Below, piece after piece: positions 30,140 to 48,589 of a DNA stretch of 64,000 nt. Below the pieces are notes generated by a model. It was given only the letters and a program-made list of their open reading frames with translations, did not search any database and had not been told where the DNA came from. The stretch is from contig JABDAR010000001.1 of the NCBI GenBank assembly GCA_013289085.1, forward strand, positions 115,864 through 179,863, given 5' to 3'. Source of the DNA: Gammaproteobacteria bacterium. GTDB lineage: Bacteria; Pseudomonadota; Gammaproteobacteria; JABCZS01. The translations under genes and the position numbers were made by a program. How positions within the stretch are numbered: position 1 is the first letter of the stretch; each line of letters starts with the position of its first letter.

Positions 30140-30145
30140 GGTAAT

Positions 30146-30267
30146 CTCGCCCCCTTTATGAAAGGGGGCAGCGCTTTGCGCGGGGGATTTTGCAAGCTTT
30201 AATGTGATGTAAAGATCGCAAAATCCCCCCGGCCTACGGCCGGCCCCCTTTCATAAAGGGGGCGAGA
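30146..30267. mobile_element. MITE-like nested-palindrome element, family A, copy 1
   Basis: Terminal inverted hairpins ctcgccccctttatgaaagggggc / gccccctttcataaagggggcgag and an inner ggggattttgc...gcaaaatcccc inverted repeat. Located between convergent stop codons. Confidence 0.6.
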
Positions 30268-30269
30268 AT

Positions 30270-31835
30270 TTAGCGTTTGTTGGTATAAGTGAAAGTGCTT
30301 TTATACTCTACTTTTTCTTGTTTTTCTGGCGCTAATGGATATTGTATTTTTACTTTATCACGTAACAACTGTTGGCGTTGCTTAACAAAATATTCAAAAT
30401 CGGTTTTATCTTTACCATCATGTTGCTCATTAATATGCATTTGATTAAATTCAGTTTGTTGTTTTTGGCTGGTCATTACATTTTTTGCGGAATAGGCATG
30501 ATAATGTGCTGAACCAAATAAAGCGCCGACCATTAATCCTTGGGTGTTTAAAGCATGGACAGTGTGCTGTACATTTTGTTGATGTTTAATGGCATCCGGT
30601 GAGTGATCAACCGGTGCCTGCGTAGGTTTTGCATGATCGTGTAAAGTTTTATGAAATAATTCCTGATTGGGAGTTGCAACAGGTGTTGTCACAGACGTTG
30701 CGCGGACCGGATTTGATTTCATTAAATAAGTTTGCAGCGCTTTATCACTTGGCGTTAATACTGTAAGTCCAAGCATCAAGCCATTTTTGTAAAGATTAAA
30801 CCAATTTTTAAACTGCGCCGGTGCATTTTCCATCATAAATGCCAGGGATGCCGGCGATAATAAATATTGACGCTCGTTAAATAGTGCGGTTTCACCGACA
30901 AGAGCTTGTTGTTCATCTACATAATCAAAAAATTCCAGGGCTAATTCATTGGTGGCGTCTTTCTCGCCATGTAGCGGTGGTAATAATTTTAATAATTCTT
31001 GCTCGCTGAGTTTGGTCAGGCGCAGCAAATCTTGTAAAGATTCGGCGCGGTATAAATTTTCTAAAAGTTCTTCTTGTTTAGCGAGCTCATAAAGTATTTT
31101 TTCGCTTAAGGCCACAAAACTATGACTGACGCCGCCCGAACTTTCACCTTCTACAATACCTAACCACGCTTTTAAAGCTTCAGGATGTTGGGCAATCCAG
31201 GAAAAACCCTCCGCAGGCATCAGTTGTCTTGCAAGTAACTGGTGAATACTTTGCAGCGGCGGAATGCCTTTATCGGTTATTTCGCGTAATTTATAGTAAT
31301 TTCCCTGAGCGTTCATGCTCCCTTCAAAAGGCAGCCAATCTTTAACATGTGCGCCTTGCTCAGTGCATAAACTGACTTGATAATGGGAAAAAATTAAGCC
31401 GATACGGCGCAAAAGTGCGCTGCTAAAAGTGACATAATGCCATATGGCTTCCTGTTCAGTAACAATAGGGCGTAATGATTCACCCACCAATAAAAATTGT
31501 TCACGCATTTTTAAAGTGGTTTTGGCTAAACGTAAATGATGATCAAGCCAGGTAATCATTGGATGTTCAAACGATTCTAATTGTTGAACAAATTCTACAA
31601 AATTATGAATTAAAGGTTCATAAAAAGTTTGATAACCTTTGCTGGATGCAGCGCAGACATCTTGAATTTCTTGAATGAGGGCAACACGTTCCGGCAGCTC
31701 CAGCAATTGGCTGGCAGTTTGCACGGCACGAATGCGTTGATCGCGTTTTGGGGAGGCCGCAATTTTTTGTTGCTGAATTATTCTGGAATATTGCATAGTG
31801 GCTACATTATAAGCCAGAGTGGTATTAGAGAGCAA
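30270..31835 (-). CDS. Hypothetical protein (521 aa)
   Basis: Continuous ORF with a K/E-rich C-terminal tail. No domain recognised. Lies 18 bp downstream of bamD. Confidence 0.5.
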   Translation of the reverse strand: MLSNTTLAYNVATMQYSRIIQQQKIAASPKRDQRIRAVQTASQLLELPERVALIQEIQDVCAASSKGYQTFYEPLIHNFVEFVQQLESFEHPMITWLDHHLRLAKTTLKMREQFLLVGESLRPIVTEQEAIWHYVTFSSALLRRIGLIFSHYQVSLCTEQGAHVKDWLPFEGSMNAQGNYYKLREITDKGIPPLQSIHQLLARQLMPAEGFSWIAQHPEALKAWLGIVEGESSGGVSHSFVALSEKILYELAKQEELLENLYRAESLQDLLRLTKLSEQELLKLLPPLHGEKDATNELALEFFDYVDEQQALVGETALFNERQYLLSPASLAFMMENAPAQFKNWFNLYKNGLMLGLTVLTPSDKALQTYLMKSNPVRATSVTTPVATPNQELFHKTLHDHAKPTQAPVDHSPDAIKHQQNVQHTVHALNTQGLMVGALFGSAHYHAYSAKNVMTSQKQQTEFNQMHINEQHDGKDKTDFEYFVKQRQQLLRDKVKIQYPLAPEKQEKVEYKSTFTYTNKR

Positions 31836-32675: not shown

Positions 32676-33629
32676 ATGAAAGATGTTCATCTCCAAGATA
32701 TCATTCCCGAAACCCTTCAAGGCATGCGCTTGGATCAAGCTTTGGCGAGCGTATTTCCAGATTATTCACGCGCGCGTATTAAAACTTGGATTATTAATCA
32801 GCAAGTGCAAGTCAATGGTAAAACGCTAACGCCTACTGATAAAGTTTGCGGGGGCGAAGAAATTATCATTAATGCGACAGTACCAGAAGCCGTAGTATGG
32901 TCGGGACAAGATCTTGCTTTAGATATAGTATATGCAGATGATGATTTAATTGTGATTAATAAACCTGCAGGTTTGGTGGTGCATCCGGCTGCAGGACATC
33001 AAGCCGGGACTTTAGTGAATGCCATATTGCATCAATTTCCTGAATGTGCGCATTTACCGCGCGGCGGAATTGTGCATCGTTTAGATAAAGATACTAGTGG
33101 TTTAATGATGGTGGCGCGCAGTTTGCCTGCACATACGGCATTAGTAAAAGCGTTTGCGAAACATGATATTGAAAGAAAATATTTAGCGGTTGTAAAAGGT
33201 GAGATGACAGGTGGTGGTAAAGTAGATGCGCCCATTGGCAGACATTCAGGAAATCGGATACGTATGGCGGTGGTTAATAATGGCAAACCTGCCGTCACTC
33301 ATTATCGTATTAAACAGCGTTTGCTAGGACATACCTTGATTACTTGTCAATTAGAAACAGGGCGTACGCATCAAATTCGTGTCCATATGGCTTATATTGG
33401 TTATCCTTTAGTGGGAGATCCTTTATATGCAGGTCGTGCACGGTTTCCAAAAAATCTTACCGAAGCTGCGAGAGCTTATATTAATCATTTTAAACGCCAG
33501 GCTTTGCATTCGTGTGAATTATCTTTGACACATCCTATAACCCATGAAGCATTAACATTTACCGCGCCTATGCCAGAAGATATGCAGGGTTTGGTGAGGT
33601 TATTGAGCAAGGACGTGCCTAAAGTTTAG
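32676..33629 (+). CDS. rluD: 23S rRNA pseudouridine synthase RluD
   Basis: S4 domain plus RluA-family catalytic motif HRLDKDTSGL. Confidence 0.85.
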   Translation: MKDVHLQDIIPETLQGMRLDQALASVFPDYSRARIKTWIINQQVQVNGKTLTPTDKVCGGEEIIINATVPEAVVWSGQDLALDIVYADDDLIVINKPAGLVVHPAAGHQAGTLVNAILHQFPECAHLPRGGIVHRLDKDTSGLMMVARSLPAHTALVKAFAKHDIERKYLAVVKGEMTGGGKVDAPIGRHSGNRIRMAVVNNGKPAVTHYRIKQRLLGHTLITCQLETGRTHQIRVHMAYIGYPLVGDPLYAGRARFPKNLTEAARAYINHFKRQALHSCELSLTHPITHEALTFTAPMPEDMQGLVRLLSKDVPKV

Positions 33630-33630
33630 G

Positions 33631-33826
33631 TTTTTCCCCTCACCCTTTCCCTCTCCCACACTAGATCTCATAACTTCGTCGAATTATTGCAACATGGGAG
33701 AGGGGACTAATAACATAAATTTGTTTTTACTATTGAGAATTACGAGAGAGTCCCCTCTCCCACGTTGCAATGTTTCTACAAAGACCAATAAATAGTGTGG
33801 GAGAGGGAAAGGGTGAGGGGAAAAAC
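33631..33826. mobile_element. MITE-like element, family B (32-bp perfect terminal inverted repeats), copy 1
   Basis: Terminal inverted repeat gtttttcccctcaccctttccctctcccacac with its reverse complement at the other end. Inner inverted repeat ttgcaacatgggagaggggac...gtcccctctcccacgttgcaa. Starts 2 bp after the rluD stop. Confidence 0.65.
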
Positions 33827-33828
33827 AG

Positions 33829-34989
33829 TCAAGCAGACAAAACATTTAACAAAACATCAACAATAACATCTACATCTTGTTTATTAATAATTAAAGGTGG
33901 CGCAAGTCTAATTACTTTTTCTGCAGTGGTGCTTACGAGTAAACCTTGCTCTGCAAATTTCATTAATAAATGTCGGCAGGGTGCATCCATTTCAATACCG
34001 ATTAATAATCCTTGGCCGCGAACGTCGATGACTTGTGGAATATCTTTTAAAGCAGTTTTAAGTTTTTGTTGTAAATAAGGTCCGACTTCATTCACATTGT
34101 CTAAAATATTTTCATGTTGTAAAACATCAATAGTTGCAAGGGCCGCACTGCAGGCAAGTGGATTGCCACCAAAAGTAGAACCATGATTGCCGATATGAAA
34201 AATATCTTTTGCTTTTCCTGCCGATAAACAAGCGCCAATTGGAAAACCATTACCTAAACTTTTCGCAAGCGCCATGACATCTGGAATAATATTAGCATGT
34301 TGAAATGCAAATAATTTTCCCGTGCGACCCATCCCGGTTTGTACTTCATCGACCATCATGAGCCATTCATGGTCATCACAAAGTTGTCTTATTTGTGCTA
34401 AATAATGCGGATCGGGCACGCGAATACCGCTTTCGCCTTGTACAGGTTCTACTAAAATCGCGACGACTTCAGGATGATGTTCAGCAATTTTGCGCAAGGC
34501 TTCAATATCATTAAAAGGTGCGCGTAAAAATCCAGTGACTAACGGTTCAAAACCCGCTTGCGCTTTGCGTGAACCACCGGCTGCAAGCGTTGCTAAAGTG
34601 CGGCCATGAAATGCATTTTCCATGACAATAATACTGGGATTTTTTACGTCGCGTTGATGACCATAAAGTCTTGCCAATTTAATTGCACATTCATTGGCTT
34701 CCGCGCCGCTATTGCAAAAAAATGCTTTATCCATTTGGGCAAGATGCGTGAGTTCTGCGGCCAGTTTTTCTACTAAAGTATTGCCCAGCATATTAGAGCA
34801 ATGTATTAATTGTTCAGCTTGTTGCTTGATTGCTTTTACGATTTTAGGATGGCAATGACCGAGATTACAAACCGCAATGCCGGCAAAGGCATCTAAATAT
34901 TTTTTATCATGGGTGTCATAAAGCCATTGGCCTTCACCTTTTTTAATGATAATAGGTAAGGTTTGGTAGGTTGACATTAACGCAGACAT
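33829..34989 (-). CDS. argD: Class-III aminotransferase (acetylornithine/succinylornithine aminotransferase-like)
   Basis: PLP-binding Lys context (DEVQTGMGRTGK) and ArgD-like N-terminus. 386 aa. Confidence 0.7.
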   Translation of the reverse strand: MSALMSTYQTLPIIIKKGEGQWLYDTHDKKYLDAFAGIAVCNLGHCHPKIVKAIKQQAEQLIHCSNMLGNTLVEKLAAELTHLAQMDKAFFCNSGAEANECAIKLARLYGHQRDVKNPSIIVMENAFHGRTLATLAAGGSRKAQAGFEPLVTGFLRAPFNDIEALRKIAEHHPEVVAILVEPVQGESGIRVPDPHYLAQIRQLCDDHEWLMMVDEVQTGMGRTGKLFAFQHANIIPDVMALAKSLGNGFPIGACLSAGKAKDIFHIGNHGSTFGGNPLACSAALATIDVLQHENILDNVNEVGPYLQQKLKTALKDIPQVIDVRGQGLLIGIEMDAPCRHLLMKFAEQGLLVSTTAEKVIRLAPPLIINKQDVDVIVDVLLNVLSA

Positions 34990-48515: not shown

Positions 48516-48521
48516 AGAAAT

Positions 48522-48581
48522 GGGGTCAGGCTTGACATTTGATTATTTTGTTTCAAAATGTCAAATGTCAAGCCTGACCCC
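48522..48581. terminator. Long inverted repeat (21-bp perfect arms, about 29-bp extended) between convergent genes
   Basis: ggggtcaggcttgacatttga...tcaaatgtcaagcctgacccc. Lies 7 bp after the stop of the 48027 gene and 8 bp before the nrdB stop. Confidence 0.55.
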
Positions 48582-48589
48582 ATAGCCGA

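Follow-up and report, generated by a model that had tools for sequence, protein, structure and literature searches.

Long-loop BoxC-type repeat doublets in a Legionellales genome and their candidate link to DUF559 nuclease genes

The BoxC repeat has been known since the 1990s, and repeats of its class, which also bear the names PIT and TM_ECO, are on record from hundreds of proteobacterial genomes and have been linked to variable loci. To our knowledge, no protein that mobilises or processes BoxC repeats has been reported. DUF559, exemplified by YcjD of Escherichia coli, is among the commonest small nuclease-fold domains of no assigned function. Here, two inverted-repeat elements are described in a 64,000-nt stretch of contig JABDAR010000001.1 (positions 115,864 to 179,863; assembly GCA_013289085.1), which is referred to below as the window. 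The elements belong to a variant form of the BoxC class, and a DUF559 protein is proposed as their candidate cognate enzyme.

In E. coli, the BoxC repeat was later called PIT element and, after that, TM_ECO; it is defined by the pattern CCCTCNCCC-N3-6-GGGNGAGGG-N3-GGGNGAGGG, i.e. a C-rich stem, a first loop, a G-rich stem, a second loop and a second G-rich block (PMC4666352). Holder et al. (2015) reported 3610 copies in 262 proteobacterial genomes, the absence of TM_ECO from Salmonella and the formation of an intrastrand triplex in vitro (PMC4666352), and Kaplan et al. (2016) described the same motif as a G-quadruplex/hairpin switch, HPG1 (PMC5100583).

BoxC-type doublets and their insertion between convergent genes

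The two window elements, copy 1 and copy 2, are doublets of units of two types, named alpha and beta. The features identified are as follows (coordinates in the window).

33630–33826: copy 1, a full doublet of 197 nt consisting of an inverted beta unit, a centre and an alpha unit (from the terminal and inner inverted repeats and the fold)
33630–33707, minus strand: beta-type unit of copy 1 (from motif positions and the unit alignment that separates the alpha and beta loop types); its blocks, in plus-strand coordinates, are the C-stem (33696–33704), a 38-nt loop, the G-stem (33649–33657), AAA, the second G-block (33637–33645) and an A-rich tail
33708–33749: AT-rich centre of copy 1, ~42 nt, common to copy 2 and to a third doublet, L010 (from alignments)
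33750–33826, plus strand: alpha-type unit of copy 1 (from motif positions and unit alignment); its blocks are CCCTCTCCC (33753–33761), a 37-nt loop, GGGAGAGGG (33799–33807), AAA, GGGTGAGGG (33811–33819) and a GAAAAAC tail
60896–61134: copy 2, a full doublet of ~239 nt in the opposite orientation (from the terminal inverted repeats and alignment to copy 1)
60896–60972, minus strand: alpha-type unit of copy 2 (from motif positions and unit alignment)
60984–61059, plus strand: tandem duplication in the centre of copy 2 with a 42-bp period (from identical 34-mers and a 42-column insertion relative to copy 1)
61057–61134, plus strand: beta-type unit of copy 2 (from motif positions and unit alignment)

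The plan of the unit is CCCTCTCCC, a loop of 37–38 nt, GGGAGAGGG, AAA, GGGTGAGGG and an A-rich tail, and all blocks other than loop 1 fit the published pattern. The C-rich stem CCCTCNCCC is present as CCCTCTCCC at 33753 and 61060 on the plus strand and as its complement at 33696 and 60961. The first G-stem GGGNGAGGG is present as GGGAGAGGG at 33799 and 61107 on the plus strand and as its complement at 33649 and 60915. AAA followed by GGGTGAGGG was found in all nine units available, in agreement with the 3-nt second loop and the second G-block of the pattern. The second G-block follows the purine-motif triplet rule at 9 of 9 positions, antiparallel to the G-stem (G*G:C, A*A:T, T*A:T). The first loop has 37–38 nt throughout the nine units of this clade, which exceeds the 3–6 nt of the pattern. 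Hence, the window units are classed as a variant and not as canonical members, and published motif searches, which allow a loop of ≤6 nt, would miss long-loop units of this kind and under-count the family. The element is a long-loop, head-to-head alpha/beta variant of the BoxC/PIT/TM_ECO class, found in Legionellales.

Alignment of the nine units sorted them into the two loop types, and every full element consists of one beta and one alpha unit arranged head to head, i.e. with the second G-blocks outermost, around a common 42-nt centre. Owing to this arrangement, the second G-blocks form perfect terminal inverted repeats (TIRs) of 30–34 nt. In copy 1, the terminal arms (33630–33663 and 33793–33826) are 34 nt long and 100% complementary, and the inner inverted repeat (33674–33708 and 33749–33783) comprises 35 nt with 86% complementarity. 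The corresponding repeats of copy 2 comprise 30 nt with 100% (60901–60930 and 61100–61129) and 34 nt with 85% complementarity (60939–60972 and 61057–61090). A 25-nt core, CCCTCACCCTTTCCCTCTCCCACAC, has four exact occurrences in the window, all of them at element ends, with none expected by chance. A 21-nt core, used below to look for further copies, also matches small palindromes in unrelated high-GC contigs (L007 and L009), and the outermost 6–7 nt of the ends are not the same in copies 1 and 2.

Two copies with inverted-repeat ends, the second in the opposite orientation, had been proposed from the letters of the window alone (referred to as the original prediction), and this proposal is confirmed by the fully complementary arms and the restriction of the core to the four ends. 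The terminal repeat of copy 1 is indeed perfect; its length is 34 nt and not 32 nt, and it starts at 33630 and not at 33631. Copy 1 (plus strand) and copy 2 (minus strand) gave a collinear end-to-end alignment with 91.9% identity outside the duplication. Copy 2 is therefore the whole element in reverse orientation, and an interior turned around relative to its ends, as originally suggested, is ruled out by the collinearity with the reverse complement of copy 1. The internal tandem duplication of copy 2 is present with a period of 42 bp in place of the 43 bp given before; it consists of 34 identical nt at 60984–61017 and 61026–61059 and an 8-nt spacer.

Copy 1 is predicted to fold as a single long hairpin, both as RNA (−119.4 kcal/mol, z = −15.4) and as DNA (−65.9 kcal/mol, z = −14.2), and the predicted RNA fold of copy 2 is of similar stability (−117.8 kcal/mol, z = −13.6). 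For the alpha unit of copy 1 taken alone, a 12-bp hairpin that leaves the second G-block free was predicted.

Both elements occupy nearly the entire gap between two convergent genes, rluD and argD for copy 1 and clpA and infA for copy 2. The clpA–infA gap from stop codon to stop codon is 244 nt in the window. In the relatives L094, L096 and L097/L098, whose ClpA proteins are 95%, 93% and 86% identical, respectively, it measures only 27, 10 and 10 nt. At the rluD–argD site, a 96%-identity relative has another palindromic element with the same four-arm layout, an 83% relative a third kind of palindromic element, and an 81% relative a plain hairpin. The occupants of this site in the relatives examined (L101, L103 and L105) thus differ from the window element, which indicates a hotspot for palindromic insertions and an element that is not a conserved 3′ untranslated region. 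Conservation of that kind, named in the original prediction as the finding that would speak against mobility, is also contradicted by the empty clpA–infA site in relatives and by more copies on other contigs.

The further copies were sought by scanning JGI metagenome contigs with a 21-nt core; the window itself belongs to a 113.7-kb contig (Ga0206858_1002) of JGI assembly 3300020618. Two other contigs of this assembly gave matches, namely contig 1001, with a solo half-element just past a stop codon (L006), and contig 1013, with two half-elements (L008/L107). A full doublet was found in a sibling sample (L010). Identity among the three full copies is 90.5–91.9%. All copies directly follow stop codons, and three are located between convergent genes. 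In independent Logan assemblies of the same organism, contigs break off precisely at the shared core (...CCCACACTAG), which is the behaviour expected of a repeat. The 21-nt core had no exact match in a genome set with one representative per GTDB species; hence, the host and this exact variant are absent from the species representatives. Relatives identified through ClpA and RluD at 93% and 83% identity are named uncultured Legionellales bacterium, and, as judged by protein similarity, the host is such a bacterium.

The doublet has entered the 10–27-nt spacers of convergent genes as one unit and is multi-copy. It has the TIRs, small size, lack of coding capacity, multiple copies and presence or absence at orthologous sites that characterise miniature inverted-repeat transposable elements (MITEs). 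It is also built, like the doublets of repetitive extragenic palindromic (REP) sequences known as REPINs, of inverted hairpin units dispersed in extragenic space.

Bracketing of short DUF559 genes by the same repeat architecture

In contig 1013 of the source assembly (L008/L107), two inward-facing alpha units adjoin the start and stop codons of an open reading frame (ORF) of 115 aa, which encodes a DUF559 protein (PF04480, E = 5e-44). This cassette lies between convergent genes and is nested in a further palindrome of 25–29 bp. The GC content of the contig is 0.385 versus 0.380 for the window, and their tetranucleotide frequencies correlate with r = 0.969 (0.980 between the window halves); these values fit an origin of the cassette contig in the same organism. 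The G-rich end of the upstream unit (GGGTGAGGGGGAATATG; L107:3897–4451) places a Shine-Dalgarno-like stretch, GAGGGGG, 5 nt before the start codon. Hence, folding of the unit could mask the ribosome-binding site of the DUF559 gene.

In many of 120 DUF559 homologues, the ORF reads into N-termini of the GERARVRG/GEGRGEG type and C-termini of the PSPSPSPRNGERG type, which are translations of the motif and its complement. The surroundings of the gene were analysed in 80 DUF559 loci from named genomes, all picked as close to one query, of Gamma-, Beta-, Alpha- and Deltaproteobacteria, Nitrospira, Dehalococcoidia, Elusimicrobia, Melainabacteria, Bacteroidota and others. A G-rich double motif is present within 150 nt upstream of the gene in 37 of the 80 loci, a C-rich one lies no more than 150 nt downstream of it in 43, and 35 loci have both; the background is 38 double motifs in 389 kb of flank. 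In a test that does not depend on the motif, 69 of 78 DUF559 genes are bracketed by inverted repeats that score above the 99th percentile of controls of the same geometry (median score 26 at the DUF559 loci; mean 8.6 and maximum 18 in the controls).

The sequence of the flanking repeats varies by lineage and their architecture is constant, with a pyrimidine/purine hairpin, a 3-nt spacer or small hairpin, and a second purine block. In asymmetric stems, the second block mirrors the G-stem at 9 of 9 positions in 84 of 195 cases, as compared with 15 of 195 for a direct repeat, in counts that are not independent; mirror symmetry is what a triplex requires, unlike a dimeric protein site. In many loci, the repeats on the two sides of the gene are near-perfect copies of each other. 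Long-loop units flank DUF559 genes in Legionella anisa (L079) and in a metagenome-assembled genome of the Coxiellaceae (L014), and in several loci (for example L013 and L042) the gene is central in a head-to-head pair, which is the polarity of the window doublets. Bracketing by this repeat architecture is the rule for short DUF559 genes in many phyla. No report of an association between DUF559 and BoxC was found in the literature searched, which omits most subscription-journal papers, and an earlier description of the link may exist.

In the alignment of DUF559 proteins, four residues of catalytic type (D49, E60, D62 and H66) show no variation. Among solved structures, 3HRL is the best match (E = 1e-39) and the Vsr-fold homing endonuclease domain 3R3P a more distant one (E = 2e-4), and a survey of PD-(D/E)XK proteins places DUF559 and Vsr-fold homing endonuclease types together (PMC3424549).

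A related arrangement exists in E. coli K-12, in which the DUF559 gene ycjD ends in a degenerate unit that is followed by the remnant of a second DUF559 gene and then by the repeat TM_ECO #9. The remnant, located between the ycjD stop codon and TM_ECO #9 (L012; NC_000913.3, 1351040–1351410), corresponds to a DUF559 3′-end (ENMETVLENIRQGLNR...HERVRG). In ~38% of 5426 complete E. coli genomes, homology is lost ~40 nt before TM_ECO #9. A clean empty site of the ycjD cassette was not seen, and the O157 strain examined has, in place of a precise excision, a larger replacement by a TetR/RND-efflux block. The comparison across the E. coli population thus lends partial support to the interpretation of the gene and its flanking units as a cassette.

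A candidate role for DUF559 and alternative explanations

The window elements are probably non-autonomous, REPIN-like doublets of BoxC/PIT/TM_ECO units, with DUF559 as the candidate cognate enzyme. A broader proposal, made by analogy with REP/REPIN sequences and their REP-associated tyrosine transposases (RAYTs), is possible and more tentative. According to it, BoxC/triplex repeats and short DUF559 nucleases of the YcjD type would form a widespread partnership, and the window doublets would be its non-autonomous long-loop members.

The unit comprises a pyrimidine/purine hairpin (CCCTCTCCC ... GGGAGAGGG), AAA and the mirror-repeat G-block GGGTGAGGG, the hairpin loop being expanded to ~37 nt. 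This structured unit, i.e. the hairpin and a third strand, may be extruded as an intrastrand triplex or a G-quadruplex, and DUF559 as the putative cognate protein would recognise it and nick or cleave at it. Units, doublets or the gene cassette would then be copied by host repair or recombination, through homing-like copying or template switching, in a manner comparable with REP/REPIN-RAYT systems. Both convergent mRNAs would carry an inserted doublet at their 3′ ends, folded into a very stable hairpin (about −118 kcal/mol), which could, more speculatively, alter the stability or processing of the mRNA 3′ ends.

If correct, the broader proposal would provide a function both for an orphan repeat and for a very common domain of unknown function. 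Two open questions would be joined in one testable hypothesis, namely that YcjD/DUF559 binds or cuts BoxC units and drives their spread or local instability. Doublets of this kind also break short-read assemblies and give rise to spurious ORFs and odd protein termini (GERVRVRG, PSPxPSP).

Several points weigh against a role of DUF559 in spreading the doublets. A PD-(D/E)XK nuclease alone cannot join strands, and DUF559 is therefore not a transposase in the usual sense. No DUF559 gene was found in the window by tblastn; hence, the window copies are linked to DUF559 by shared units on another contig and not by adjacency. The cassette of the source genome is an alpha/alpha pair arranged tail to tail, the doublets are beta/alpha pairs arranged head to head, and, given these differences in unit type and polarity, the doublets did not arise from the cassette by simple deletion and are not its empty homing sites. 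The relation between repeat type and DUF559 protein clade is weak (identity 0.550 vs 0.532, a difference reached by 22 of 2000 permutations). No target-site duplication of consistent length or sequence was found at the copies compared. The flanks are AG/AG for copy 1, approximately TAA/TAA for copy 2 only with a 1-nt shift of the end, and TAG/TAG for L010, and the divergence of the empty sites prevents an exact placement of the junction. The portion of the source assembly seen amounts to ~80 kb, and the copy counts are thus not genome-wide. In addition, Holder et al. found no transposase or integrase near TM_ECO repeats, and PIT elements of E. coli showed no promoter or terminator activity and no effect in vivo (PMC4666352).

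The main alternative retains the association between DUF559 and the repeats and reverses the causality. The repeats would spread by another route, such as recombination, slippage during replication or the action of an unknown enzyme. DUF559 would be a free-standing nuclease gene of the homing type that targets pre-existing units and lodges between them, with the units serving as homology arms, and the window doublets would be unoccupied landing sites. Such a role would accommodate the presence of the gene between units in both polarities, the relationship of DUF559 to Vsr-fold homing endonucleases (PMC3424549), the tandem DUF559 remnants at ycjD, and the location of the L107 cassette inside a further palindrome. 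It leaves unexplained, however, how units and doublets arrive at new sites such as clpA–infA, and the DUF559 gene of the source genome is not within a beta/alpha doublet. The near-perfect identity of the gene-flanking repeats in many loci is also as expected of element ends. A reversal of causality is considered rather unlikely, with some chance of being correct. If, instead, the element had no dedicated enzyme and was selected by the host, it might serve as a bidirectional terminator, a 3′-end stabiliser, an RNase III site or a G-quadruplex/hairpin/triplex switch. The position of all copies right after stop codons, three of them between convergent genes, would suit such a function, as would the extreme stability of the hairpin and the presence of GGGAGAGGGAAAGGGTGAGGG, which is a G3N3 x4 motif of canonical form; in vitro, the motif of E. 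coli adopts triplex and G-quadruplex/hairpin structures (PMC4666352; PMC5100583). However, neither a U-tract nor a terminator-like site is present in 33400–34050, the tails being A-rich on both strands, and the terminator and promoter scan revealed nothing relevant. Rfam gave no match at the gathering threshold in the whole window; under permissive settings, the only matches were to models of plant miRNA precursors and of a generic long-hairpin kind (68 bits vs a threshold of 230 bits). Close relatives have 10-nt spacers without the element and others have unrelated palindromes at the same site; hence, a host-selected function is not conserved. The inactivity of PIT elements as terminators or promoters in E. 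coli (PMC4666352) points in the same direction. A host-selected terminator or stabiliser is thus unlikely as the origin of the element; exaptation after insertion, with effects on the four flanking mRNAs, is possible.

Mobilisation in trans by a transposase was the explanation given in the original prediction. In that case, the element would be a classical MITE, i.e. an internally deleted insertion sequence (IS), for example of the IS630/Tc1 or IS200/IS605 families, with a transposase binding to the 30–34-nt TIRs. This would account for the perfect TIRs and the small size, for the lack of any coding sequence, and for the occurrence of several copies with sites that are empty in relatives. The empty sites and further copies do uphold a non-autonomous mobile element that is diversifying. 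Descent from an IS, on the other hand, finds no counterpart in a consistent target-site duplication or in a duplicated TA. Half-units occur alone (L006) or in the opposite pairing (L008), and the ends (CCCTCACCCTTTCCCTCTCCC) are a cross-phylum BoxC/TM motif that flanks DUF559 genes and not transposases. No transposase, of the IS630/Tc1 or IS200/IS605 families or with these ends, was seen beside any copy in the fetched loci, which cover part of the source genome; only DUF559 is bracketed by the units. An IS-derived MITE is therefore improbable. REP/REPIN sequences proper, mobilised by a RAYT (a Y1 HUH transposase), would share the layout of inverted extragenic hairpin doublets and of a single-copy gene flanked by units (PMC8266576; PMC5581495). 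However, the flanked gene encodes DUF559 (PF04480) and not a Y1 transposase, and the units have no GTAG/CGTC tag of the REP super-families (PMC3733652). Membership of that system is highly improbable. The explanation preferred is hence that of REPIN-like doublets of BoxC-type units with DUF559 as the candidate enzyme.

Flanking genes, other palindromes and comparison with known systems

The convergent neighbours rluD/argD and clpA/infA, as originally named, were confirmed by NCBIfam. Together with an ORF overlapping copy 1, they are as follows.

32676–33629, plus strand: rluD, with a TAG stop codon directly adjoining copy 1 (NF008385, E = 2e-128)
33829–34989, minus strand: argD-type transaminase gene, with the stop codon 2 nt from copy 1 (TIGR00707, E = 2e-144)
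58613–60895, plus strand: clpA, with the stop codon adjoining copy 2 (0 nt; TIGR02639 and NF008263)
61140–61391, minus strand: infA, with the stop codon 5 nt from copy 2 (TIGR00008, E = 4e-34)
33770–34078, plus strand: ORF starting within the alpha unit of copy 1, antisense to argD, with no protein family match

The last of these is very probably spurious and arises from the element, as had been proposed. Upstream of rluD, a gene of the TraI_2 family (PF07514) at 30270–31835 on the minus strand (the same gene as L004:595–2121) adjoins a bamD/yfiO-like gene, and this arrangement is kept in the relatives L101 and L103. The segment 16001–28000 differs from the rest of the window in a lower GC content (0.346–0.357) and a strongly negative AT skew (down to −0.23), for which horizontal acquisition of the segment or a series of genes in one orientation may be responsible.

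Other palindromes are present in the window. A second family at 30145–30267 and 57727–57850 has 47-nt arms with 77–81% complementarity and hairpins of the GCCCCCTTTATGAAAGGGGGC type. A related insert of 136 nt is present in L098 and absent from the otherwise identical L097; the insert lies between infA and a thioredoxin-reductase-like gene, within a terminator-like hairpin upstream of infA. At 48520–48583, two perfectly complementary 23-nt arms of an inverted repeat (ATGGGGTCAGGCTTGACATTTGA) are separated by 18 nt.

In relatives, two further unrelated palindromic elements lie in the convergent rluD–argD gap (L101:2949–3161 and L103:2958–3170), with the ends CTGTCACCCCGCAAAAATTCCGC... (same four-arm layout) and GGGCGAAAGATTTTTCGCCCCTACGGATG..., respectively. 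The Logan contigs L102 and L104 break within these elements, which are therefore probably multi-copy in the relatives; neither family was found in the 64-kb window. In the closest relative, with a 98% identical ClpA, synteny is lost right after clpA (L093:4284–4343) and a gene for a protein of 1144 aa replaces infA, with no repeat remaining at the junction.

Among known systems, BoxC/TM_ECO shares with the window elements the three 9-nt blocks CCCTCTCCC, GGGAGAGGG and GGGTGAGGG, the 3-nt second loop and a second G-block that mirrors the G-stem. Both are strictly intergenic, occur singly or as inverted pairs and are associated with variable loci, and their pairs join two subtypes, type A and type B in E. 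coli and alpha and beta here. The differences are loop 1, which has 37–38 nt in the window units versus 3–6 nt, and the pairing, which is head to head with a 42-nt centre in the window, whereas E. coli pairs are tail to tail and ~16 nt apart. Moreover, the window doublet (197–239 nt) moves as one unit, its host is a member of the Legionellales with 38% GC, and the link to DUF559 is absent from the BoxC/TM_ECO papers.

With bacterial MITEs such as Correia, ERIC/IRU, RUP and Nezha, the element has in common its size, perfect TIRs, long-hairpin RNA, intergenic location and presence or absence among relatives. Unlike them, it has no consistent target-site duplication and no parental IS or transposase in the loci fetched, its half-units also occur alone, and its ends are found across phyla. 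The Vsr-fold homing endonuclease I-Bth0305I (PDB 3R3P) and the structural-genomics DUF559 protein 3HRL match the DUF559 protein in fold and in the conserved D...E.D...H residues. In contrast to the gene for I-Bth0305I, which is located within a group I intron, the DUF559 gene is free-standing between repeats. REP/REPIN-RAYT systems likewise consist of short extragenic hairpin units, of inverted doublets that spread as a whole, and of a gene in low copy number with inverted units of the same family on both sides. They differ in that the protein bracketed here is a Vsr-fold PD-(D/E)XK nuclease and in that the units described here have a third, mirror-repeat block in place of the GTAG/CGTC tag; by analogy with RAYT, DUF559 would be the protein that mobilises them.

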